The notes under the pieces are model-generated. The model saw only the letters and a program-made list of their open reading frames with translations. It was not told the DNA's origin and searched no databases. Shown piece by piece: positions 3,822-60,352 of a DNA stretch of 64,000 bases. Origin of the DNA: a virus (taxonomy: Duplodnaviria; Caudoviricetes); IMG/VR virus record IMGVR_UViG_3300026549_000029, positions 96,001-160,000 of that record; one strand, given 5' to 3'. Positions within the stretch are counted from its first letter, which is position 1, and each line of letters begins with the position of its first letter. The translations under genes were made by a program, and so were the position numbers.

Positions 3822-4682
3822 ATGAATATTAAACCTGTAATATTTAATACAAATAATCCTAACTTCAAAAAAGAATTAGCAGATAAAGCATCAAACTGGT
3901 TTAATAAAATGGAAACAGAATATTTAGATATTATTACAAATTCTTTCAATAATACTAAAAAATATAATCCTGATTTTTTAGGTAAATTATCATATGATAA
4001 TAATAATAATAATAAATCTACTATTCAAAATATTCAATTATTAGATATGGATTCTGTATCAGCAGCATATTTAATAAATTTTGCAACAAAAAATGAAGAT
4101 AAACCTATTGGATTATTAAATTTTGCATCTTTTAAGTTTCCAGGTGGATTGTTTTTGCAGGGAAGTAGGATGCAAGAAGAATCATTATGTCATGAATCAA
4201 TTCTTTATAATGTACTTAGAAGATTTAATTTAGATTTTTATGGAGAAAATAGATTATTATGTAAAAGATATAAAGATGTAAATAGTACATATATAAATAG
4301 AGGTTTATATTCTCCAGATATATTATTTATCCATAATAATGAAAAATTCTACTGTAATGTAATTACAGTAGCAGCTCCTAATAATAGAAAACATGATATA
4401 TCAAATGATGTTAATTATAGAGCTTTATATGCAAGAATAAAATTTGTATTAGACATTGCTAAAGATAATAATATAAAAACTATTATTCTTGGAGCATTTG
4501 GTTGTGGAGTATTCAAACAAAATCCTGAAGAAGTAGCAAATATATTTAAAGAATTATTAATATTTGGAGAATATAATTTTAATAATGTATATTTTGCTAT
4601 TCCTTATGGAAATAATTATAAAGTATTTGCCAGAGTACTTAAAGCTTGTCTTTCTGGTATTATTATTGATAATGAAACTTAA
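3822..4682 (+). CDS. TIGR02452-family microbial PARG-like macrodomain (ADP-ribose glycohydrolase)
   Basis: LNFAS..PGG.F..GSRMQEESLC signature, ITVAAP, ILGAFGCGVF. Confidence 0.85.
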   Translation: MNIKPVIFNTNNPNFKKELADKASNWFNKMETEYLDIITNSFNNTKKYNPDFLGKLSYDNNNNNKSTIQNIQLLDMDSVSAAYLINFATKNEDKPIGLLNFASFKFPGGLFLQGSRMQEESLCHESILYNVLRRFNLDFYGENRLLCKRYKDVNSTYINRGLYSPDILFIHNNEKFYCNVITVAAPNNRKHDISNDVNYRALYARIKFVLDIAKDNNIKTIILGAFGCGVFKQNPEEVANIFKELLIFGEYNFNNVYFAIPYGNNYKVFARVLKACLSGIIIDNET

Positions 4683-22760: not shown

Positions 22761-25688
22761 ATGAATAAAATAAATGTAAAAGATCATCCTATATTAGTAC
22801 AATATAGAGATACAATGACTAGAATATTAAATTCTAAATATCCTTTAATGAATAAAAATGATATAGAAAAAGCAGTAGAATTTTCTATACAGAAAAGATT
22901 TAAAGATTTTAATCTCAGTATACAAAATAAGTATATTGGAAAAACTGTCGATATGACAGCATTAGCCATGCTAGATTATATAAGGAATAGAGAGCCTATT
23001 ATAACTAGCTATGGTACAATGTTTAGAAAACACGATACTGTACCTAATCCAATGGGTAAAGTTATTCAAAGTTTTCTTGATTTAAGAAAAGCTCAAAAGA
23101 AAGAAATGTTCAAATATCCTAAAGGAAGTGAGATGTTTGAACGATGGAATTTATTACAAAACTTATCTAAAATTGATACAAATGGTTAATAATATAGCCC
23201 ACTTATTAGGAAACTAATAGGTTGAATACCAAGAAATTGCTGGAAAATCCTAAAGCTCTCTTGCCTATATGGAGTGAAAACAGAAATAAGTAGAGAGATG
23301 AACTATGGTGAAATAAAAGCTCTTAATATAATAAGAGTCCTAAGGTTTATTAATAATGGATGATCAGCAGCCAAGCTCTATATTATTATATAGAGAAGGT
23401 TCAACGACTAATTGTAAGGCTCAAGTGAGTCTGAAAACTTGGTACACCTAACCTAGAAATAGTATGGTGAAGATATAGTCTGTCCTTTAAGGAAATCTTA
23501 AAGAAGTTCATAAGAGAACTACATAGATTAACGACCTATGTGAACATAAGAGATTTACGGTTTAACATATTAGACCTCTTATATAGAAATATATAAGTAA
23601 AAACAGGGTTAAAATTGGAAGAAGGTTAGATTGGCCATCTAATATTCAATCAATTACGAACACTACTTTTAGTAGGGACGTTTAACGACTATCCTCTTAA
23701 GAGGAGTAGGGCTCAAGCGAGCGTGGCATTCTTGTAAATGTAAGTCCACTTAATTCGAAAATCCTGCACCTAAACCTAATTATTTGGCATGGTGATTATA
23801 TAGTCTCAGCATTCAGGTAACACTTGAAGAAGTTCATAAGAGAACTGCACAGATTAGCGACCTGTGTGAAGATACTGTGATTGGCCTTTATGTTTCTATC
23901 CTTTTTGATCTTAATATAGCACCAGCAGTTACTTCTACTGGTAGATCCCTTATATCTTCTGCTATATTATGTTTTGAAGGATTTCTTGGAAATAATGTAA
24001 AATTTTCATCTTTAAATGATATTCTTATTTTTATAGATAATGTAAGATTAGAATATTCATCTTGGCAGTATAATGATTATGAGGTTCTTCCTACAGAAGG
24101 ATTTGTATCTTTAGAAGAAGCTTTTACTAAACTTATCTTAAATTGTGGATATAAGTATACACCTTCTTATGAAGATATGGATACTGTATATCGTATATTA
24201 CAGTCCTGCAATCAAATAGAGTTAAATAGATTATTTTATAAGAATAATTTATACTGCTTTATGGATCTTCCTATAGCAAGAAATCTTATGATATCTATTA
24301 TAACTAATATGCAGACTCCTTATATAGAACCTGCAAAACCACCTAAAGAAATTGTTCCTCAATTAAATGAGTTAAGAGATCTATTAGTAGAATATGTATT
24401 CTATAATCATCAATGGATGGATAGAATGGATAGAAATAAGAATATGATTAAGAATGTTTCTATTGTATCTGATACTGATTCATCTTTTGTATCTTTAGAT
24501 GCATGGTATCATTATAATATGACATATCTTAAAGATTATGATTCTCCTATTTTACATCAGAAGATAGACCTCTTTATGAAATTAGAGAAAGAGAAGAAAT
24601 CTGATTATTGGAAAGATAAAGAAATTCCAGAATGGTATAATGCTATTAATAAAACAGAAGTAGTAGAGTTTTTAGATACTGATGAATTTGGAGATCTTAA
24701 AGATCTATCTAGATTAAATGGAATAGAATTTCTTGATAATGAAAAAGACTATGATTTTTATAATCAAGAGATTATAGAAAAGAAAAGATTAATAAATGCT
24801 TTAGAGATTATACCACAAGATAATTTAAAGTTTGCTTTAATAAATATTATGTGTTATATTTTATCTACTATTATTAATCTCTATATGATTGATTTTACTA
24901 AACAGTCTGGATCTTATAGATCAGACGAATTATGTAGAATCAATATGAAAAACGAGTTTATGATGTCCAGGATCATGTTATGTACAACGAAAAAAAATTA
25001 TGCATCCTTACAAATTTTGCAAGAAGGAAATTATCTTGGTGGAGTACTTGATGTAAAAGGAATTCCTTGTTTAACAAAATCTGTTATATCTAAAGATACA
25101 CAGAAAGCTTTAAGAAAGATTTTATTAGAAGATATTCTTACAGGAAAAGTAGATCAATTAAAATTAATAAAAGATATAGCTATACTTGAAAGAGAAATTT
25201 ATAATGATCTTAAAAGTGGTAGCAAAAAATATTTTAAACCTGCAATAATTAGAGATATTGATAATTATGAAACTCCACTTAGAATACAAGGGATTAAAGC
25301 AGCTATTGCATGGAACTATGTTAGAACAGGACTTCCTGGATTTGATTTAACTAATAGAAATTCTTTAGATATAGTAAAAATTAAAATAGATAAAAATTCT
25401 GTAATTAAAATAAGAGATCAATATCCTGCACAATATGAAAAATTTTGTGATATATTAGAATCTAAAAATAATATACAATTAGAAGGATTTAATTTACATG
25501 AAATATTTGGAGGAAAATTAGAGAATATTGCTATTCCTAAAGACCTTCCAGTTCCAGAATGGTTAATTCCTTTTATTGATTATGAATCTATTATTAATGA
25601 TAATTTAGCTACATTTCCTGTAGAATCTATAGGTTTAGGCAGTTTTGGTAATAAAAAACCTAACTATAATAATGTGGTAAAATTATAA
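22761..25688 (+). CDS. Family B DNA polymerase, C-terminal gene (motifs B and C); spliced join(22761..23186,23553..23562,23878..25688), 748 aa
   Basis: Splicing restores motif B KIDTNG-IYGL-IG in frame (2247 nt); motif C SDTDS; KKNYA; KGI. Confidence 0.9.
23187..23552 (+). mobile_element. Group I intron 1 (ORF-less, IA2-like), 366 nt
   Basis: 5' exon ends in U paired to IGS gcc; P aattgctggaaa, Q tcagcagcc, R ggttcaacgacta, S atatagtc; terminal G. Confidence 0.9.
23563..23877 (+). mobile_element. Group I intron 2 (ORF-less), 315 nt
   Basis: P1 ggtt/gacc with U-G pair; P7 gacta/tagtc; P3 cagggtt/aatcctg; 3' end nearly identical to intron 3; omega G at 23877. Confidence 0.85.
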
Positions 25689-25749: not shown

Positions 25750-26928
25750 ATGATTATAGATAAAAATGGAAATAAACATGTAGAAATAGGTGATAAATAT
25801 GGTAAACTTACTGTGATAGAAAAATCTAATAATGATTATATAACTTCATTCGGATATCATATTCCAAAATATATATGTAAATGTGAATGTGGTAATTATA
25901 CAGAAATATTAGAATATAGTTTAACAAATAATCGTACAAAATCATGTGGCCATTGTAGTAATATTCATATTGGAGATAAATTTGGAAAATTAACAGTATT
26001 AGAAAAAGATAAAAATGATTGTATATTACCATCAGGAAGGCATATTCCAAAATATATATGTAAATGTGAATGTGGCAATATAATATCTGTATTAAAATAT
26101 ACTTTACTTAGAAATCAAAAATTATCATGTGGTAATTGTAATTCAATTCATATTGGAGATAAATTTGGAAAATTAACAGTAATATCTAAAGCCAGTGATT
26201 ATATAAATCCTAATTCTGGAAATTGTATTAAAAGATGGCTTTGCAAATGTGAGTGCGGTAATACTACAATAGTAAGAGATAATGATTTAAAACGTGGTAT
26301 AACTAAATCATGTGGATGCTTGATTATTGAACAATTAAAAAAGAGAAATAGTACTCATTTATTATCTAATACACTATTATATAGAGAATATAGTAGTATG
26401 ATACAAAGATGCTATAACCCAAACAATATTAGATATCCAGAATATGGTCAAAGAGGAATACAAGTTTGTAGAGAATGGTATAATTCAGATTATAAAAAAG
26501 GATTTGATCCAGAATGTATTAATATATTTTATAATTGGGCAATAAATAATGGGTATAAAGAAGGTTTAACTATTGATCGAATCAATGTTAATGGTAATTA
26601 TGAACCTAGTAATTGTAGATGGATACCAAAAGAATATCAAGCACATAATAGAAGAAATAGTATAAAAATAAATCTTAATGGAGAAATATATGATATAGGA
26701 CAAATTTCTAGTATATTAGGTATAGATTATATGTTTTTATATCATCGATTAAAGAAGAATAATTATAATTTATCTTCTTTATTTACTTATATTACAGATC
26801 AATATGGTAATACTAGACCTTATATATTAGATAAATATAATAATCCTATACCTATTAATATTATATACTTTATAGATGAATATGGATTTCCTATATCACA
26901 AGATAAGATAAATGAATCTAATATCTAA
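25750..26928 (+). CDS. Free-standing HNH homing endonuclease with three Cys-rich N-terminal repeats
   Basis: Three IGDK(F/Y)GKLTV...CKCECGN...SCG units; M..RCY, YG.RGI.VC..W, TIDRINVNGNYEPSNCRW. Confidence 0.9.
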   Translation: MIIDKNGNKHVEIGDKYGKLTVIEKSNNDYITSFGYHIPKYICKCECGNYTEILEYSLTNNRTKSCGHCSNIHIGDKFGKLTVLEKDKNDCILPSGRHIPKYICKCECGNIISVLKYTLLRNQKLSCGNCNSIHIGDKFGKLTVISKASDYINPNSGNCIKRWLCKCECGNTTIVRDNDLKRGITKSCGCLIIEQLKKRNSTHLLSNTLLYREYSSMIQRCYNPNNIRYPEYGQRGIQVCREWYNSDYKKGFDPECINIFYNWAINNGYKEGLTIDRINVNGNYEPSNCRWIPKEYQAHNRRNSIKINLNGEIYDIGQISSILGIDYMFLYHRLKKNNYNLSSLFTYITDQYGNTRPYILDKYNNPIPINIIYFIDEYGFPISQDKINESNI

Positions 26929-30971: not shown

Positions 30972-31985
30972 ATGTCTTATGCAGATACAGTTTTTAAAAA
31001 TACATGTAGGGATATTCTTGAAAATGGTACTGATACACAAGGAGAACTTGTAAGACCAGTATGGCAAGATACAGGAGAAAAAGCTTATACAATAAAGAAA
31101 TTTTCTGTAATTCATAGATATAATCTTTCTAAAGAATTTCCTGCTATTACATTAAGACCAGTTCCTATTAAATCTGCTACAGAAGAACTTCTTTGGATTT
31201 ATCAAAAGAAATCAAATAATATTAATGATTTTAAACTCCATATTTGGGATTCTTGGGCAGATTCTAATGGTTCCATTGGTAAAGCCTATGGATATCAGAT
31301 TAAACAGAAATATGCTCATCATAAAATAGCATCATCTGATGAATTAAAATTTGGAAAAGATGATGTTAAATTTTATAATTATATTCATGATTATTTTTCA
31401 AATATTGATATAAAAACTTATCCTTCTTCAGAAATTTATTATGAACAAAAAATAAATGATGATAATAAACGTTCAATTGTAGCATATCTTATGCTTGATC
31501 AGATTGATGCAGTGATCTGGGATCTGAAAAATAATCCATATTCTAGAAGAATTATGACCAATACTTATAATTTTAAAGATCTTCATGAAATGAATCTTTA
31601 TCCTTGTGCATATGAAATGAAATATAATGTTACTAAAGATAAAGAAACTGGAAAACTTGTTCTTAATGGAATTCTTATTCAGAGATCTCAGGATGTATTA
31701 GCAGCATTAGCATGGAATGAAGTTCAGTATGCTGTACTTCTTCATATAATTGCTCAGTGTTGTGATATGATTCCTGGTGAATTTGTTCATGAGATTACAG
31801 ATTGTCATATTTATGATAGGCATGTTCCTATTATTAAAGAACTTATTGAAAGAGAAGAATATCCTGCACCTAAGTTTTGGTTAAATCCTGATATTCATAA
31901 TTTCTATGATTTTACTAAAAATGATGTAAAATTAATTGATTATAAACATGGACCGCAGATTGAATATATTCCTATTGCAGTATAA
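30972..31985 (+). CDS. thyA: Thymidylate synthase
   Basis: EELLW, IGKAYG, SRR, LYPCAY (catalytic Cys), QRSQD, WN..QY (dUMP-specificity Asn), DCHIY, C-terminal IAV. Confidence 0.95.
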   Translation: MSYADTVFKNTCRDILENGTDTQGELVRPVWQDTGEKAYTIKKFSVIHRYNLSKEFPAITLRPVPIKSATEELLWIYQKKSNNINDFKLHIWDSWADSNGSIGKAYGYQIKQKYAHHKIASSDELKFGKDDVKFYNYIHDYFSNIDIKTYPSSEIYYEQKINDDNKRSIVAYLMLDQIDAVIWDLKNNPYSRRIMTNTYNFKDLHEMNLYPCAYEMKYNVTKDKETGKLVLNGILIQRSQDVLAALAWNEVQYAVLLHIIAQCCDMIPGEFVHEITDCHIYDRHVPIIKELIEREEYPAPKFWLNPDIHNFYDFTKNDVKLIDYKHGPQIEYIPIAV

Positions 31986-36836: not shown

Positions 36837-39149
36837 ATGAGATCAAATAATTTTGCTGATCAAGTTGAAGAAGCTTATTCTAATTTAGATTCTAAAGAAC
36901 AAATGCTAGGTAAAGGACTAATTCAACCTAATACGGCGACGAATAGTGGCAGCAGGAAAATAATGATGAGCACCCATACGTCGCATCATCTTACCCTCTC
37001 TCAGGCGCAACCACCTTATATATCCACTGGTTTTGAAAATATGTTTGGAGATCATTCTTCTTCTATTATTAATTCTTCATCTGATCTTTTTGATAGAGTT
37101 AATGATAATAATAAAAATGATTCTTCATCATCTCACGATAAACCATATCTTTCATCTTACTCTTCTCCTGTAGAAGTAATAGCTAAGATATCTAAGTTTT
37201 CTTATGCACCTAATCATCATTATTATCTTATAGTAAAAGATTCAGATTCTAATTCTCTTGATGTTATAGAAAGAGTATCATATAAATATCAGACAGAATG
37301 TTATGGATTTCTCTATAATAATTCTGTTCTTGACTCTTATTCTTTTCCTGGTTCTATAATTCCACCTAATACTATTCTTCGTCGTTCTACTGGTTTTGAT
37401 GCTTATGGTAATAAAGCAGATGGTTATAATATAAATACTGCTTATATGGCATTAGATCATAATATGGAAGATTCTGTTATTATCTCTGATACTTGTTCAG
37501 AAAAACTTTCTGCACCTCTTATCAGAAATGTAGAAATCATTCTTAATGAAAATGATATTCCATTAAATATTTATGGGGATGATAATATTTATAAAGTATT
37601 TCCTGATATTGGGGAAGATGTAAAAGATGGAATTCTTCTTGCATATAGAAGAGAGAAAAGAGAAGAAGCTATATACACTCAATCAGTATCTAGATTGCAG
37701 CAGATAATGATGAGTGATGATAAGATTACTATTAAAGGAAAAGTAATAGATATTCAATTATACTGCAATAATCCTGAATATATTTCTAAATCTACATATA
37801 ATCAGCAGTTTTATGCTTATTATCAAGATAGAATTAGAATGTGTACAGAAATTATGAATGTAGTAGGTCCTTATAAAACTCAAGGATATAATTTAAGTTA
37901 TAGATTGGACAAATTATATTCAAGATCCATTAGTGAAGTTAATGGAAAGAAATTTATGGAGAAAAAATTATTCTCTAATATTAGAATTGAATTTACTGTA
38001 ATGGAAAATAGACCTTTAGGTGTAGGAGATAAAGTAGCAGATAGATATGGAGGAAAAGGAGTTATTTCTAAAATAATTCCTAATGAACTAATGCCTAAGA
38101 TGGCTAATGGAATGCCTATAGAGATGATTAAAAATTCCTCTACTATGTATAATAGAGAAAATGCTGGACAGATATTTGAATTAGAAATTAATTATATCTC
38201 TATGTGTATTTTAGATAGAATAAAATCTGGGTATTATGGAGATGATATAGAAGCAGCAATGGATGAGATTTTAAAATTTGTTAAACTTCAGTCTCCCGTA
38301 CAATATGAAGAAATGAAGAAATATATTGATTCTTATGATATACAAGGAGTCATATATTTCTTGGAGAGTATATTGCAAAAGACTTGTATTCCTATTTCAA
38401 ATAATCCTATGTCTGAAACTATGGATATAGATAAATTAAGAAGATTATACGAGGAATTTCCTTGGATTAATCAATCATATTTGATGGTTCCTATTGTAGA
38501 TTCTAAAGGAAATTATAGATTTGTAAAATCTAGAAGACCTGTAATAGCAGCACCTATATATTGTTTAAGATTAAAACAATTTGCAGAAGAAAAATTTTCT
38601 GCTGCAAGTTTAAGTTCTACTAATATTAAAAATGAGAATGCTAAGAGTAAAGCTAGTAAAAATTATAGAGAACCTAATTCTAATACTCCTATTAAGTTTG
38701 GTCAGATGGAATCTGGAGATTTTGATCATATGGGGACAGAATATGTAGTAATCAATCTCTTATTGCATTCTTTATCTCCACATGGTAGAAGATTAGTAGA
38801 ACAAGCTGCTATAGGTGATCCTTATAATGTAGATATTAAATTGGATTCTAAATCAAAAAATAGATCTGCAGAAATCTTAAATACCAGATTAAAAGCTATG
38901 GGCTATAGATTAGTATTTAAGAAGATTAAGAAACATAAGAAATATGCATTATTAACTCCTGCATTAGAATTCTTTGAAAGGTCTCCTGAAGATCCTATTG
39001 AAGTTGTAGATTTTATGGAAGAAGGATATGACTTCGATAAATGGTATAAGACTCTATATGAGATAGAAAAAATCAAGAAGAATAGTGTTGCTATGATTAA
39101 TGCTATTTCATTCACTGAAGATTCTTCTCATGTACCTGAAGATGAGTAA
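36837..39149 (+). CDS. Phage RNA polymerase beta subunit, C-terminal part (phiKZ gp71/73-like)
   Basis: NSGSRKIM, EDSVIIS, GDKVADRYGGKGVISKI, R.N.GQ, KFGQME. Confidence 0.92.
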   Translation: MRSNNFADQVEEAYSNLDSKEQMLGKGLIQPNTATNSGSRKIMMSTHTSHHLTLSQAQPPYISTGFENMFGDHSSSIINSSSDLFDRVNDNNKNDSSSSHDKPYLSSYSSPVEVIAKISKFSYAPNHHYYLIVKDSDSNSLDVIERVSYKYQTECYGFLYNNSVLDSYSFPGSIIPPNTILRRSTGFDAYGNKADGYNINTAYMALDHNMEDSVIISDTCSEKLSAPLIRNVEIILNENDIPLNIYGDDNIYKVFPDIGEDVKDGILLAYRREKREEAIYTQSVSRLQQIMMSDDKITIKGKVIDIQLYCNNPEYISKSTYNQQFYAYYQDRIRMCTEIMNVVGPYKTQGYNLSYRLDKLYSRSISEVNGKKFMEKKLFSNIRIEFTVMENRPLGVGDKVADRYGGKGVISKIIPNELMPKMANGMPIEMIKNSSTMYNRENAGQIFELEINYISMCILDRIKSGYYGDDIEAAMDEILKFVKLQSPVQYEEMKKYIDSYDIQGVIYFLESILQKTCIPISNNPMSETMDIDKLRRLYEEFPWINQSYLMVPIVDSKGNYRFVKSRRPVIAAPIYCLRLKQFAEEKFSAASLSSTNIKNENAKSKASKNYREPNSNTPIKFGQMESGDFDHMGTEYVVINLLLHSLSPHGRRLVEQAAIGDPYNVDIKLDSKSKNRSAEILNTRLKAMGYRLVFKKIKKHKKYALLTPALEFFERSPEDPIEVVDFMEEGYDFDKWYKTLYEIEKIKKNSVAMINAISFTEDSSHVPEDE

Positions 39150-40728: not shown

Positions 40729-41381
40729 TGTATACATTTAAAATACAAAAAGATTATTATAATAATGGTGTAAAATTATATTTAAAAGACACTATTGAAA
40801 TTAAAGAAGGATTAACAGTATTAGTTGGATGTAATGGAAGTGGTAAAACTACTTTAATTAAACAAATGAAAAACCAATTAGAAGAAAATATAGATATAGA
40901 TATTATTGATTTTAATAATTTATCTCAAGGCGGTTCAAATAAATTATCTGAACTATTATATCGTGCTAATCAATTTAATAATAATATGGAAGAACTTGCT
41001 TTAAGAGCATTTGCTTCTGAAGGAGAAAGTATCTATTATAATATTGGAGATATAATTAGAAAAATTGGAAATACTATAAGATGTAGTAAAAAAGATATTA
41101 TATTTGTATTCTTTGATGCTATTGATTCTGGTCTATCTATAGATAATGCAGCTGAGGTTATTGATATCATTAAAAATCTTATTATTCCAGATGCACAAAG
41201 ATTTAATAAAGAAATTTATTTTATTATATCTACAAATAGTTATGAATTTGTAAGACATAATACAAGTGAATGTTTTGATATATATCATTGTGTATATAGA
41301 TCTTTTAGTGGATATGAAAGCTATAGAAAGTTTATATTAAATACAAAGAAAATAAAAGATAGGAGAGTTTATAAAGAATGA
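40728..41381 (+). CDS. ABC/AAA-type ATPase
   Basis: Walker A GCNGSGKTT, ASEGE signature, FFDAIDSGLS. Confidence 0.8.
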   Translation: MYTFKIQKDYYNNGVKLYLKDTIEIKEGLTVLVGCNGSGKTTLIKQMKNQLEENIDIDIIDFNNLSQGGSNKLSELLYRANQFNNNMEELALRAFASEGESIYYNIGDIIRKIGNTIRCSKKDIIFVFFDAIDSGLSIDNAAEVIDIIKNLIIPDAQRFNKEIYFIISTNSYEFVRHNTSECFDIYHCVYRSFSGYESYRKFILNTKKIKDRRVYKE

Positions 41382-43756
41382 GAGATATTATTATAGGTAA
41401 TATCTTAAATGATTTAAGACATGGAAGTCTTAAACTTGTATATGATAATAAACAATATCTTAATGATTATGCAATGATGTTGTATAATAAAACAGGATTA
41501 ACACAAGATGAACTATATGATTTTAGAGATATTATCTTAATTGCTAATATTACTTATAATGATACCGATAAAGAATTATTACCTATTGAAGATGGTTTTT
41601 ATGATTTACTTTTAGAAAAATATAAAAAATATGATCCAAATTTTCAAGTAGGGGCTGAAGTAATTAATTTTACATCATCTGAACCTATTATTACTAATGA
41701 AAACGGTGAAGTAATTAAACCTATGAGAGAGGCTATTACATTTGATCCTATTCCTAGTGAACAAGATAATCATTTTGTTAATAGTATTATCATAGATGAA
41801 AGAAAATATCTTGATGCTAGAGATTTCTTTGTACCTAATCCTTTAGGTGAAGCTTATATTACAAAGAGATTGCATGATACTTCTCATAATCATCCTGAAT
41901 TAGTAGGCACTCTAGATAAATGCAAGTTTGTATTAGATAGAGATGCTAAAACTAGAGGAGTTTATGAAGATTCTAATGTAAAAATTGTTGAAAGAGATTT
42001 TATTATGGATCATATTAATAAAGGAATTATTAATCCTAATATGATCTTTGATATGGTTTTAGAATTAAAATATGATGGTATTTCTGTTGAAGCTGATTGT
42101 ACAGATGAAATAGTATCTGCAAGATCTAGAGGCGATACTGGTATAGGTAAAGCTTCTGATCTTACACCAATATTAAAAGGATATAAGTTCCCTCATAGAA
42201 CTCCTAATAGTCCTATGATTGGAGTTAAATTTGAAGCAATAATCACACAATATGATTTACCTTTCTTTAATGCAGCTAAAGGATATGAATATAAGAATTG
42301 TAGATCTGCTATAGTTGGATTATTTTCTTCTTCTGATGCTTGGAAGTATAGAGATTTTATAACTCTTGTACCTTTAGCAGTTGAAGAAAATGTATATAAA
42401 ACTATATGTCATTCAGATAGAGTAGAAGAAATAGACTTTTTAAATAAAGAATTTATTTCTAAAGGATGCCCTTTAAGATCCGTAATGATAAGAGGAAATT
42501 ATCTAGAAAATCTTGTTTGGATTAATATGTTTACACAGAATGCTGAATCTTCTAGAGCTTGGGTACCATTTATGTACGATGGTATTGTAGTATCTTATAG
42601 AGATGAAGCTATTAGACAGACTTTAGGAAGAGAAAATTTTATTAATAAATATTCTATAGCAGTAAAGTTTAATCCTCTCAGAAAAGAAACTATATTTAGA
42701 GGATATACCTATACTGTGGGTCAAGATGGTTCTATTACTCCAATGATTCATTATGATCCTGTAGAATTTTATGGAACTATCCATCCTAAATCTTCTGGTC
42801 ATTCTTATGCTAGATTTAAAGAATTGAATTTACATATTGGAGACATGTTAGCTATAGAATATGTCAATGATGTTATGCCATATGTATATAAACCTTTTAA
42901 TGATTATAATTTAGATAATGAAAAAGTTATGCCTGCTGAAGTATTTCCTACTAATTGTCCTGTTTGTGGTGGACCTATTGAAATATCTGAATCTGGTAAG
43001 TCTGCTAAATGCGTAAATCCTAATTGTGGTGGTAGACAGTTATCTCGTATGGTAAATATGTTTGCTAAGTTAGGATTAGAAGGTTTTGGAGAAGCTACAG
43101 TACAACAGTTAGGCTATTATCATCTTAAGGATTTATTAGAAGAGATGATAGAACAAGGAGATGGAGCAGCTAAATTTATTCATAAAGGGTTTGGCCCTAT
43201 AGAAGCTATGAATATAGCTAATCAATTAATAGGATTATTGACTAATCCCATTACAGATGCTAAACTTTTGGGAGCTATTGGTTTTACAGGTATATCTACT
43301 AAAACTTGGGAAACTATATTAGCTAAAATTAGTTATTCTAAATTAAAAGAATTATTTACAATGATAGATCCAGGAAAATTCTATTATAAGAAAGGCATAG
43401 AATTTATGTCATCTATCAAAGGTATCGGTCCATCTACTGCAGATACCATAGCAAGAGAGTTCAAATATTTTTATAAAGATATTGATTATATGATTCAGCA
43501 TGGTAATGTTATAGAATATATTCCAGTACAAGGAAAAATTATAAAATTATCTGGTACTAGAGATAAGAATTTAGTTAAGTTCTTAACTGATAATGGATTT
43601 ATTGTAGATTTTAATAGAACTATAACTAAAGATGTAGCTTATGTTGTTGTACCTCATCCTGGTTTTACTAGTTTTAAAACTAAGATGGCTAATGATTATA
43701 ATATTCCTGTAGTACCTATGGAAGATATTATGAATAATATTGAAAGATATAAATAA
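41378..43756 (+). CDS. ligA: NAD-dependent DNA ligase
   Basis: ELKYDG, SRGD, YDGIV, AVKF, OB fold, CPVCG...C...C zinc finger, HhH (KGIGP), BRCT-like C-terminus. Confidence 0.92.
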   Translation: MRDIIIGNILNDLRHGSLKLVYDNKQYLNDYAMMLYNKTGLTQDELYDFRDIILIANITYNDTDKELLPIEDGFYDLLLEKYKKYDPNFQVGAEVINFTSSEPIITNENGEVIKPMREAITFDPIPSEQDNHFVNSIIIDERKYLDARDFFVPNPLGEAYITKRLHDTSHNHPELVGTLDKCKFVLDRDAKTRGVYEDSNVKIVERDFIMDHINKGIINPNMIFDMVLELKYDGISVEADCTDEIVSARSRGDTGIGKASDLTPILKGYKFPHRTPNSPMIGVKFEAIITQYDLPFFNAAKGYEYKNCRSAIVGLFSSSDAWKYRDFITLVPLAVEENVYKTICHSDRVEEIDFLNKEFISKGCPLRSVMIRGNYLENLVWINMFTQNAESSRAWVPFMYDGIVVSYRDEAIRQTLGRENFINKYSIAVKFNPLRKETIFRGYTYTVGQDGSITPMIHYDPVEFYGTIHPKSSGHSYARFKELNLHIGDMLAIEYVNDVMPYVYKPFNDYNLDNEKVMPAEVFPTNCPVCGGPIEISESGKSAKCVNPNCGGRQLSRMVNMFAKLGLEGFGEATVQQLGYYHLKDLLEEMIEQGDGAAKFIHKGFGPIEAMNIANQLIGLLTNPITDAKLLGAIGFTGISTKTWETILAKISYSKLKELFTMIDPGKFYYKKGIEFMSSIKGIGPSTADTIAREFKYFYKDIDYMIQHGNVIEYIPVQGKIIKLSGTRDKNLVKFLTDNGFIVDFNRTITKDVAYVVVPHPGFTSFKTKMANDYNIPVVPMEDIMNNIERYK

Positions 43757-45977: not shown

Positions 45978-47927
45978 GTGGATCAAAACTTCTCTTTTAA
46001 TTATCAACAAATTCCTATGCCAGAAAATAGAGATCCTTATTCTGGTAATATTGGAAGTATGATGGTATCTCCTAGTGATAAACCATCTATTGATAAATTT
46101 ATGTATAAATTTAATAAAGAAAATAGAGCTCCATTTAATGATTATTGGTTTCAAAGAAATGATGAAGATCTTATTGAAGGAATGAAACAAGTAATCTTAT
46201 CCTGTCAAAGAGATAAATACTTTGTATTGAAAGTATTGAACTTTGAAACTATTAAAGATTATAATGAAATTAATAGAGCTCTCTATGAATACTATTCTGC
46301 TAAAACTAAGAATGGTAAAAAGATTGATAATAATTATGAGTATATTAATCTTAGAGATTCAGATATAATGTTACTTAAAGTAATTTATTATGTCAAATTA
46401 AATGTACCAGAGAATAAGATCAGAATTGATTCTAAAACTGGAGAATTAGAAAAGAGTGAAGGGATTGTAAATGTATTAATAGCATTACCAAGATATGTAG
46501 ATAAGTATTATTTTAGAATTCTTGGTAATTATTATAATCCTATATTCCAGATTGTAGATGGAAGCACTTATAATAATTCTACATCTAATAGTAAGACTCA
46601 ATCTATTACTTTAAAGACACAGTTTATGCCTATTAAAGTATACAAAGAGTATTATGATTTAGTAGACATTTGTGATAAAGAATCTCATAGATGTGTATTA
46701 TTTGCAAGCTATGTGTTTACTAAGAAAACAGATACAATGAAATTTATTTTAGGACGTTATGGCTTATATGGAACCCTTGAAATGCTGGAATTAGAAGGTA
46801 TTTATGTATTTCCGTATGAGAACCATCAGGTATTAGATCCTAAAACTTATTATAATTTTGCGGATAAACATAATAAGATAATTGTATCTGTAGTAAAGAG
46901 ATTATTTGATAAAGATAATGTAACACAATCTTTTTGTTATACAATTTTAAAGAGTGTTAAAAAGCTTAATAAATTTAATGATATATTTGATCCAAGATAT
47001 TGGAATAAAATATTAGGAGCAGATTTTCAATCTGCCACTTTAGATAAAGGGATTCCTGTACTTGATTCTTTGGAAAGCATTTATGATTTGAAAACTAAAC
47101 ATTCTATAAGATTGCCATTAGAAGATAAAGCTGATACTTATTGCATTCTTAGATGGATGATGAGAGAGTTCTCTTATTTAAAACAAAGAGATAATATTGA
47201 TATATCTACTAAACATCCAAGAAAAGCAGATGAATATCTTCCTGCTATCTATGCTAAGAAAATTTCTACTGGTATTTATAGAATTTCTGACAAAGGAAAA
47301 AATATTACCTTTAAAGATGTGACAAGAGTAATTGATACAGCACCAGATTATATACTTAAGTCTATTAACTCTGCTAACTTAGTAGATTATGTAGATCTTG
47401 TAAATGATAATGATGCTGAATTGGCTTTAGCTTATACTTATAAAGGAATTTCTGGTCTTGGAGATCAGGGAAATGGTACAGCAGTACCTATTATCTATAG
47501 AAGTGTACATCCTTCTCATTTAGGTAGAGTAGATTTAGACTCTTCTTCTAATTCAGATCCTGGTTTATCTGGAATGATTTGTCCTATGGCAAAAGTATAT
47601 GATGGTTCTTTTTCTGATTATAAAGAACCTAATGAATGGAGGAACTTTTATAAAGAGACATTACAAGAATTAAATAGTCTTTATGGTATAAAGCAAGCTA
47701 TAGAATTAAAGAAAACTCTTGGATTATCATATGATTATGTAAAAGAAGATATGGTAAGAGAGACTATAGAAACATATCATAGATTAATTCCTCTTGTTAT
47801 TGATATTGAAGGTAAGAAAGATTATACTTTAGGTGCTGTTATGGATATAGAGGAACAAGTACTTGTAGAATCTGATTCTGAAGATGGTGTAGGAGAAATT
47901 ACTACAACTATGGAAAGAATAACCTGA
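45978..47927 (+). CDS. Phage RNA polymerase beta subunit, N-terminal part (phiKZ gp123-like)
   Basis: YFRILGN.Y.PIFQ, YRSVHPSHLGRVDLDSSSNSDPGLSG.ICP; GTG start after GAGGAGG. Confidence 0.88.
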   Translation: MDQNFSFNYQQIPMPENRDPYSGNIGSMMVSPSDKPSIDKFMYKFNKENRAPFNDYWFQRNDEDLIEGMKQVILSCQRDKYFVLKVLNFETIKDYNEINRALYEYYSAKTKNGKKIDNNYEYINLRDSDIMLLKVIYYVKLNVPENKIRIDSKTGELEKSEGIVNVLIALPRYVDKYYFRILGNYYNPIFQIVDGSTYNNSTSNSKTQSITLKTQFMPIKVYKEYYDLVDICDKESHRCVLFASYVFTKKTDTMKFILGRYGLYGTLEMLELEGIYVFPYENHQVLDPKTYYNFADKHNKIIVSVVKRLFDKDNVTQSFCYTILKSVKKLNKFNDIFDPRYWNKILGADFQSATLDKGIPVLDSLESIYDLKTKHSIRLPLEDKADTYCILRWMMREFSYLKQRDNIDISTKHPRKADEYLPAIYAKKISTGIYRISDKGKNITFKDVTRVIDTAPDYILKSINSANLVDYVDLVNDNDAELALAYTYKGISGLGDQGNGTAVPIIYRSVHPSHLGRVDLDSSSNSDPGLSGMICPMAKVYDGSFSDYKEPNEWRNFYKETLQELNSLYGIKQAIELKKTLGLSYDYVKEDMVRETIETYHRLIPLVIDIEGKKDYTLGAVMDIEEQVLVESDSEDGVGEITTTMERIT

Positions 47928-57963: not shown

Positions 57964-60352
57964 ATGGCTAAGAGAAAGAGTTTTATTTTAAATAATAAAC
58001 AATATGAATTAGTAATTCCAGGATATCCAAAAGGTTCTGATATAACAGTAATAAATACTTCTTATATACCTAGAAAGAAAGTAGAAAATGAAGAAGGAAA
58101 TATTGTATATGAGAAAGATTATATAGCAATATTATTTAGAGATAATAAGACTGAAGAAAAACATATTCATATTATAAAAGAACCAGTATATACTTTTTAT
58201 AAACTTAAAGATGATATAATCCCTACAGATTATGTATTATTCTTTATTCCTAAAGAAGATGTAGAACCTTATACCTGTAAATATTCTAATATACTACAAG
58301 CTATAGCTGAAGTTACTAATATGATAGATTTCTATCAATATAATGTAACTAATAAAATCTTTAGTGAGAATAAGAAATTACATACTATTCCTTCTATATT
58401 TATGTCAGATATGAATATAGAAAATTATTATAGATTTTTATTTGGATTATCTTATCCTAATAATATCTTTAAATTATCTAAAGCATATCTTGATATAGAA
58501 ACCGATGGGCGTTATGCTATGGGAGATTTTCCAGAACCTGGAGAAGTACCTATTAATGCTGTAGCATATTGTGATGAAGCTCATAATATTACATATCAAT
58601 TTATCTTTGATGATCCTAGAAATCCTGCACTTCAGGAATATAAGAGACAATTTTCTAGAAAAGATATATTAGGAGAATTAAAGAATTTTGTAATTAATGC
58701 TGTAGGAGGATATAAGAAAGCAGTAAAATTTGGTGTTGATAATATGGAATATAAATTAATCTTCTTTAAAGATGAATTAGAAATGTTAGAAAGATTATTT
58801 GATATTATTAATATTTCTTCACCAGATTTTCTTAATATATGGAATATGTCATTTGACTTATCTTATATATTAGCAAGAATATATGAGTTAGGTGGAGATG
58901 TAATAGAAACTGTATGTGATAAAAGAGTTACTCCTAAATTCTTAAGATATTATATAGATGAGAGAAATAAAAATAATTTTGAAGAAAGAGGAGATTTTGT
59001 AGCTATATCTTCTTATACAGTATGGAATGATCAAATGATAACATTTGCATCAAGACGTAAAGGTAGAGCAGCATATCCATCTTTTGCATTAAACGCTATT
59101 GGAGAAGATGTAGCAAATGTTAAGAAATTAGATTATTCTAATATCACTAAAGATATTAATATGCTTCCTTATATAGATTTTAAGACATTCAGTTTTTATA
59201 ATGTGATGGATGTTATTGTACAGAAATGTATAGAAAGAATGACATCTGATTGCGATTATATATTTACTAAGTGTTTAGTAAATAATACAAACTATTCTAA
59301 ATGTCATAGACAGAGTGTATATTTAGCTAATAGATTTGCTAAAGATTTTTATAATTATGGATATATTATTGGTAATAATAAAAATATCTATAATGAGAAA
59401 CCCGACGCTAAGTTTTGTGGTGCTCAAGTCGGCAATCCATTGAATAATAATCCAGATATTACATATCATATTAATGGTAAGCCTACTATGCTAGTAGAGA
59501 ACTGTGTGGATTTCGATTGATTTTAGTCGCTTTTTAGTAGTAATACTGAGAAGAAAATCTTATTGAATTGCTGGGAAAGGCTAAAGCTCTCTTGCCTATA
59601 TGGAGTGAAAACAGAAATAAGTAGAGAGATGAACTATGGTGAAATAAAAGCTCTTAATATAATAAGAGTCCTAAGGTTTATTAACAATGTCTAATCAGCA
59701 GCCAATCTTTATAATGTAAAGAAGGTTCAACGACTATCCGAAAGGAGTAGGGCTTAAGCAAGCTCGAAGTGATAAGAGGTCCAGGATATACTGGATCGTG
59801 ATATAGTCTCAGCATTCAGGTAACACCTGAAGAAGTTCATAAGAGAACTGCACAGATTAGCGACCTGTGTGAAGATTACTGTACTCCTCACTTTATCCAT
59901 CTATTATCTTAGAAAATAATATAGCACCAAATACACAATATGGTAGAATTATTATTGAAGATGAATCCGATCCCAATAAAGTATATTCTCGTAATGAGCA
60001 TCCTGATATGTTTAGTAATGATGATGATGAAGCTAAATATTCTCGTGGTGGAGAATTTTTAGATAATCTGATGACTTCTAATATATTAGAATTCTGTTGG
60101 AGATGGCTTAACTTAGGAGATATTTATGATGTAGAATCTGACTTGAGAGAATTTTATAATTTTAATTCTTATGAAGGTCCTTCTATAGATTATTCTCTTA
60201 AAGATGCTATTTATATTAGTAAATCTAATATGACTTCTGTATTTGAAGATATTCCTTATGGAAATAATCCTGTTGTAATTTCTGATGTAGCTCTTGACAA
60301 AACAGTAAGTGATAATCTTACTGAAGAAATAAAGAAAGGAGCTATTTTATAA
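57964..60352 (+). CDS. Family B DNA polymerase, N-terminal gene (3'-5' exonuclease and motif A); spliced join(57964..59517,59882..60352), 674 aa
   Basis: ExoI YLDIETD, ExoII WNMSFD, ExoIII YNVMDV; splicing restores motif A DFD-YSSLYPS in frame with ORF 60008..60352. Confidence 0.92.
59518..59881 (+). mobile_element. Group I intron 3 (ORF-less), 364 nt
   Basis: P1 cgat/gtcg with U-G pair; P aattgctggg, Q tcagcagcc, R ggttcaacgacta, S atatagtc; omega G at 59881. Confidence 0.92.

Follow-up and report, generated by a model that had tools for sequence, protein, structure and literature searches.

How a phage obtains a working DNA polymerase from a gene whose motif B residues Ile-Tyr-Gly (IYG) are encoded in no open reading frame (ORF) is the question raised by positions 22761-25688 of the DNA analysed here, a 64,000-nucleotide (nt) window that comprises bases 96001-160000 of the 287,868-bp virus record IMGVR_UViG_3300026549_000029 (27.7% GC). 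Gene callers and Rfam scans of the whole window miss the arrangement, and the polymerase looks like two unrelated ORFs. Metatranscriptome RNA shows that two group I introns lying back to back are removed and that the 10-nt exon between them is retained; very probably, the two are independent selfish mobile introns that have accumulated at a highly conserved motif.

Two introns and a 10-nt exon in polymerase motif B

The region 22761-25688 encodes the catalytic subunit, with motifs B and C, of a family-B DNA polymerase (PolB) that is split as in AR9, and the region is composed of the following parts:

22761..23186, plus strand: exon 1 of the PolB catalytic subunit, 142 codons ending ...SKIDTNG, aligning to AR9 g152, SA1 and the intronless related locus L010
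23187..23552, plus strand: intron b, 366 nt, an ORF-less group I intron with an IA-like P7.1/P7.2 insert and terminal G23552
23553..23562, plus strand: micro-exon ATTTACGGTT, 10 nt, encoding Ile-Tyr-Gly and the first base of Leu
23563..23877, plus strand: intron c, 315 nt, an ORF-less group I intron with terminal G23877
23878..25688, plus strand: exon 3, in which TG completes the Leu codon, followed by ...LIGLYVS..., motif C (SDTDS) and a divergent PolB palm/thumb

An earlier note on this DNA, made from the letters alone, had proposed the two introns, the micro-exon and its exact junctions, and had suggested searching metatranscriptomes for the spliced joint. Such a joint is present in a contig of metatranscriptome run X6 (record 26, 712 nt), which reads 22950-23186, ATTTACGGTT and 23878-24342 with zero mismatches; it spans AATGGT-ATTTACGGTT-exon 3 exactly, demonstrating precise excision of both introns and ligation of the exons in RNA, and the proposed junctions are borne out by it and by an intronless homologue alike. 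In two other runs, X3 and X4, 23186 and 23878 are the exact points at which RNA contigs end or begin. It is highly improbable that the X6 contig merely stems from DNA of an intronless allele carried over into the RNA library, with the introns never removed. Intronless alleles do occur in nature (L010, L021, L022) and DNA can be carried in RNA libraries, but identity between the contig and the known intronless relatives amounts to only 80-85% along the 712 nt, so that they were not its source, whereas the contig matches the exons of the window perfectly along 702 nt. Moreover, the contigs of DNA run X2 (∼125×) cross both exon/intron borders, invariably retain the introns and contain no spliced joint, and a head-to-tail joint from 23552 to 23188 was found in RNA alone at a depth of ∼67. 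The latter fits a circularised intron b minus its first U and is consistent with attack by the terminal G. No exon-skipped or half-spliced joint was found among the RNA contigs, although assembled contigs lose rare variants and low-level skipping is therefore not excluded. The RNA depth over the introns lies far above that of the exons and was not used, because related introns of other phages contribute to it.

As a separate observation, an RNA contig of run X3 (depth ∼15) joins 23324-23552, the last 229 nt of intron b, to the 30 nt of 47736-47765, which are located 24 kb away within the ORF 45978-47927 and directly after ...UAUGAU. It could be a chimera or an excised intron ligated to an ectopic RNA site.

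Exon 1 ends with AATGGT at 23186 and exon 3 begins with TGATTGGC at 23878, leaving a gap of 691 nt (given as 690 nt in the earlier note) that does hold both introns. Upon splicing, the coding sequence of 22761-25688 amounts to 2247 nt, encodes 748 amino acids plus a stop codon and reads SKIDTNGIYGLIG; motif B (K-x3-N-x2-YG) is restored as predicted, and it is also present in the intronless counterpart in L010. The spliced product aligns without gaps to AR9 g152 and SA1 across KxxxNSxYG to DTDS, and exon 3 matches Pfam PF20286 divDNApol (4e-23) and, by tblastn, the 'DNA-polymerase catalytic subunit' of AR9, PBS1 and SA1. The junctions are unique as well: when every removal of one intron or of two was enumerated, each intron being 200 nt or longer, preceded by T and terminated by G, a single solution preserved the reading frame and recreated KID.NG[IV]YG, and it coincides with the proposed junctions. 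Exon skipping would give AAT GGT TGA and non-splicing AAT GGT TAA, each an immediate stop; the claim that skipping deletes the motif and shifts the frame thus holds.

Each intron has the complete set of group I landmarks. Scans of the short local stretch with the Rfam model RF00028 (Intron_gpI; gathering threshold 50 bits) gave two full-length matches, one to intron b (23178-23503, 67.8 bits, E 6e-17), above the gathering score, and one to intron c (23553-23829, 37.1 bits, E 1e-7), below it; membership of intron c in group I therefore rests on covariation, on its P1 and terminal ωG, and on its removal from RNA. The P7 halves GACTA/TAGTC lie at 23406-23410/23476-23480 in intron b and at 23687-23691/23801-23805 in intron c, and together with the two P1 helices with their U.G pairs and the two terminal Gs they are all found where the earlier note had placed them. 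In intron b the guide G23197-C-C pairs with the GGU at the end of exon 1 (U23186.G23197), while in intron c the partner of the guide G23573-A-C-C is GGUU, which ends the micro-exon (U23562.G23573); in both, the 5′ splice site follows a U paired to a guide G and the intron ends in G. The P1 registers returned by an automatic finder at the site-b introns were spurious and G.U-rich, and the register of the Rfam alignment with its conserved AUAGCCC guide was kept. Both introns belong to the phage-type subgroup IA, having large inserts between P7 and P3′ in their Rfam alignments, with two to three covarying hairpins by RNAalifold. RNAalifold on six relatives of intron c drew P1, P2, P3, P4-P6, P7.1/7.2, P8 and P9-P9.2, with 29 of the 83 pairs compensatory; the pseudoknotted P7, which RNAalifold cannot draw, follows the Rfam alignment. 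The P9 regions of introns b and c are near-identical. A single large intron or a twintron was rejected, because the 10 nt are present in the mature RNA and each half has a complete core.

Long-stretch searches fared differently. An Rfam cmscan of the whole 64-kb window (gathering; E ≤ 0.001) reported no group I intron despite the three present, and scans of three whole relative loci found nothing, whereas scans of stretches shorter than 1 kb of the same DNA, or a genome-wide Rfam search, detect the introns. The negatives on long stretches are filter artefacts in AT-rich DNA and no evidence of absence.

Insertion sites in relatives and intron lineages in the genome

A comparison of 30 related loci from viral and metagenome contigs located four insertion sites within the 33 nt that encode L-x-K-I-D-x-N-G-I-Y-G-L, with zero to three introns per locus. 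The sites are:

Site a′: GCCT, then the intron, then TAGAC
Site a: CTGGAT, then the intron, then AAG
Site b: AATGGT, then the intron, then AT
Site c: TACGGKT, then the intron, then T

and the states in which the loci occur are:

No intron: L010, L021, L022, L035, L039-L041 and more distant loci
a only: L017
b only: the L016 group and L026, the latter with an HNH ORF
c only: L028, L032 and L037, with an HNH ORF in the P1 loop
a and b: L011, with an 18-nt micro-exon (KIDVNG), both introns being detected by Rfam
a′ and b: L025, with a 23-nt micro-exon
b and c: the window, L015/L027, L029 and L042, with the identical 10-nt exon arrangement
a′, b and c: L033 and L034, with two micro-exons of 23 and 10 nt

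Micro-exons across the relatives are thus 10, 18 or 23 nt long, the 10-nt form (ATWTACGGKT) being present in L015, L029, L042, L033 and L034. The intronless state is exemplified by L010, a 274-kb relative, in which an uninterrupted protein of 751 amino acids carries SKIDVNGIYGLIGLYVSILF and the motif B region reads SKIDVNGIYGLIG, and by L021, in which the continuous DNA AATGGTATTTACGGTTTGAT corresponds to AATGGT-ATTTACGGTT-TGAT. At the other extreme, L033:2380-3498 and L034:1499-2617 hold three tandem introns of 374, 377 and 335 nt within motif B, and their splicing is predicted from the sequence to yield ...LQALDKIDVNGIYGLVGLY.... Introns orthologous to intron b occupy site b in L011, L015, L016, L025, L026, L029 and L042. 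Presence or absence is therefore polymorphic, and HNH ORFs are carried by site-b introns (L026, L029, L042) and by site-c introns (L028, L037), while the window's two introns are ORF-less.

Guides and exons change together in these relatives. Exon position −2 of P1 co-varies with the guide, being U:A in the window (GGUU/GACC), G:C in L015, L029 and L042 (GGGU/GCCC) and A:U at site a of L011 (GGAU/GUCC), which agrees with the proposal that the introns are independent and each has its own guide. Every allele carrying intron c has the synonymous context TAC-GGK-T.

Introns b and c derive from different sequence lineages with 67% identity. Type 1 occupies site b, site a in L017, motif A of the partner polymerase gene and the RNA polymerase β′ gene, whereas type 2 occupies site c, and site a in L011; at each of these locations the guide matches the local exon. 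The two lineages thus occur at other catalytic motifs with retargeted guides, and six family members were counted genome-wide by Rfam and nhmmer. The partner gene and the gene directly 3′ of the polymerase are:

57964..60352, plus strand: partner polymerase gene with exonuclease domain and motif A (Pfam DNA_pol_B_exo1; DFDYSSLYPS)
25750..26928, plus strand: free-standing HNH endonuclease gene, directly 3′ of the polymerase gene (phrog_374, 2.8e-83)

In the partner gene, motif A is split at 59518-59881 by a related intron (VDFD / YSSLYPSII; RF00028 54.1 bits), so that the ORF 57964-59520 and the frame 59882-60352 constitute one gene. This intron is a mosaic, sharing 104 of 104 nt with intron b (23250-23353 versus 59581-59684) and 75 of 76 nt with intron c (23798-23873 versus 59801-59876), a pattern that points to dispersed introns having recently recombined or undergone gene conversion. 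Outside the window, the RNA polymerase β′ gene of the same genome holds a second tandem pair at L003:1194-1900 (genome 6280-6986), in which ORF-less group I introns of 301 and 390 nt (RF00028 61.1 and 73.2 bits) flank the 16-nt micro-exon ACAATTTCATATGGAT; splicing would give ...LINRNP-TISYG-SILCM...AADFDGD, in which the product of the 16-nt exon adjoins the RNA polymerase active site.

The family-B polymerase is encoded by two genes in the same layout as in AR9 (tblastn to the AR9 'DNA polymerase' and to its catalytic subunit), with motif B and DTDS in one and the exonuclease domain and motif A in the other, and among phages the pieces are most similar to those of AR9, PBS1 and staphylococcal jumbo phages. 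Judged by its gene content, which includes a multisubunit RNA polymerase piece, an NAD-dependent ligase, a thymidylate synthase and an SMC-like ATPase, the 288-kb genome is that of a jumbo phage resembling AR9 and PBS1. It occurs chiefly in samples of cattle gut and rumen, and cattle-gut metatranscriptome runs contain it.

The free-standing HNH gene has repeated CxCxCG zinc-finger-like units and does not stand at the corresponding position in L010 and L011; by blastp it has no similarity (E < 1e-3) to the HNH ORFs inside the relatives' introns, and a role as the mobilising nuclease of these introns is a guess. Other genes in the window encode a microbial PARG plus macro-domain protein (3822-4682), a piece of an RNA polymerase β-like subunit (36837-39149), an NAD-dependent DNA ligase (41378-43756) and a thymidylate-synthase homologue of extra length (30972-31985; 337 amino acids versus a 266-position profile).

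Probable selfish insertion and its alternatives

Under the favoured reading, the pre-mRNA would bear two independent ribozymes, each folding alone with a guide of its own: intron b would use the GGU of exon 1 and intron c the last four bases of the micro-exon, and the order of splicing would be free, with either b or c removed first. The 10-nt exon would suffice for the P1 of intron c and perhaps also for a weak P10 of intron b, and removal of both introns with the micro-exon kept would produce ...K-I-D-T-N-G-I-Y-G-L-I-G.... Because a failed splice or a skipped exon leads to an immediate stop, an active polymerase would need three correct splices, the motif-A intron counted. The arrangement is dispensable and polymorphic, since the number of introns here varies from zero to three among close relatives, the HNH-bearing versions of both introns indicate selfish homing, and a comparable arrangement is met elsewhere in the genome. 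The junctions, in vivo splicing, the polymorphism and the covariation are demonstrated; from them we infer that the introns are autocatalytic, that homing is their means of spread and that they have no regulatory role.

Several points weigh against this reading. The RNA evidence for splicing consists of one assembled contig (depth 6) from one run plus contig ends in two others, and contigs give no ratios of spliced, unspliced and exon-skipped forms. Intron c has a sub-threshold Rfam score, and the P10 of intron b in the window, inspected by eye, comprises only 2-3 scattered A-U pairs. Homing also leaves unaccounted for how two introns 10 nt apart were acquired. The b and c pair with its 10-nt exon recurs in phages whose polymerases are 68-70% identical, and the pair could thus be maintained or move as a unit instead of being a random pile-up; the shared TAC-GGK-T context would fit travel of the pair as a unit as well.

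That intron b, the 10-nt exon and intron c make up one composite element, passed on by co-conversion after one cut and perhaps created by reverse splicing of one lineage into a similar GGU site 10 nt off, is unlikely, albeit not negligibly so. The same architecture in the window, L015/L027, L029, L042, L033 and L034 speaks for it, the TAC-GGK-T of all intron-c alleles is what co-conversion would leave, both targets end in GGU or GKU, the L015-type guide of intron b (GCCCC) would be able to pair with GGGU at the end of the micro-exon as well, and in an RNA contig the ectopic position 47736 follows directly on the 3′ end of intron b. However, both introns also occur singly (b in L016 and others, c in L028 and L037), they are of different lineages at 67% identity, and direct evidence for reverse splicing into DNA is lacking, the ectopic contig being possibly a chimera. 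An extension of this idea, that the tandem arrays (b and c, or a′, b and c) are composite elements which spread as units and in which the ribozymes act on one another over a 10-nt exon almost wholly consumed by splice-site helices, is a somewhat fainter prospect; were it true, it would entail an enforced splicing order or a controlled fraction of skipping or ectopic ligation, no smaller exon would be known between group I introns of bacteria or phages, and the array would offer a natural model of cooperative ribozyme splicing.

We also regard it as quite improbable that the tandem introns and their tiny exon act as a regulatory gate, controlling polymerase output through splicing order, GTP sensing, or regulated skipping to a truncated product of 142 amino acids. 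Such control would draw on the immediate stop after skipping or non-splicing and on the need of an active enzyme for removal of all three polymerase motif introns; exon skipping is documented in the Twort orf142 and SIOphi pairs, the P9 regions of b and c are near-identical, and the pair recurs in diverged phages. But relatives at 80-85% nucleotide identity are intronless and others have only a, b or c, so the device is not conserved, the HNH-bearing versions indicate selfish mobility, and the guides differ (GCC in b, GACC in c), which in engineered pairs suppresses skipping (PMC10136302). The earlier suggestion that splicing order and fidelity gate replication is thus unsupported, as intronless relatives exist.

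Hidden micro-exons in core genes of jumbo phages are probably common, the 16-nt exon of the β′ gene being a second in the same genome. A 10-nt exon between two ribozymes, together with a natural series from none to three introns, provides a system for studying how skipping is avoided or used and how guides are retargeted, and the locus documents an intense homing hotspot among gut and rumen jumbo phages of a widespread clade.

Comparison with known tandem introns

The closest precedent is orf142 of phage Twort, to which the earlier note had aptly compared this locus and in which the tandem introns I2 and I3 flank a 23-nt exon that undergoes skipping (Landthaler & Shub 1999, as summarised in PMC10136302). 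There as here, a very short coding exon sits between tandem group IA introns of phage type that are ORF-less and similar to one another, and skipping would break the frame because the length of the exon is not a multiple of three. Unlike the Twort exon, which lies in a tail-tube gene and for which skipping was observed, the present one is 10 nt long, lies in PolB motif B and was seen only in the inclusion product; moreover, relatives of the window phage carry up to three tandem introns.

In the Bastillevirinae, between one and three group I introns interrupt genes for DNA polymerase, ribonucleotide reductase and terminase; in the phiNIT1 ribonucleotide reductase gene, complementary DNA reads alone revealed a small exon enclosed by two introns, and SIOphi shows exon skipping (PMC11878797). 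Those polymerases belong to a different family and their introns mostly contain endonuclease genes, unlike the window's, and the text of that paper describes no 10-nt exon and no multi-site hotspot inside one catalytic motif. AR9/MarsHill-like jumbo phages have introns in RNA polymerase, DNA polymerase and gyrase genes, with a content that varies between relatives (Lavysh 2016 as cited; bioRxiv 10.1101/2020.12.14.422802). The window phage resembles them in its split PolB and its two multisubunit RNA polymerases; in contrast to the window, AR9 g152 is uninterrupted and no micro-exons are annotated in this group. MarsHill and Machias were considered as carriers of a motif-B micro-exon and set aside, the Machias interruption lying near motif C instead.

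Insertion of a second group I intron beside a first has also isolated very short exons, confirmed by RNA reads, in a placozoan cox1 gene, with a 1-nt exon (PMC5436844), and in Coxiella 23S rRNA, with a 34-nt exon. Unlike the window, these are mitochondrial or bacterial rRNA settings with introns of other subgroups, and they come with no presence/absence series across a population. Inteins occupy motifs A, B and C of archaeal PolB; these are homing elements at the same motifs, but they splice at the protein level, so that the analogy is one of targeting only. Short exons between phage group I introns are thus already known from Twort and the Bastillevirinae, and what is new, as far as the searchable literature shows, is an exon of 10 nt, its position inside PolB motif B, and a population series of up to three tandem introns.

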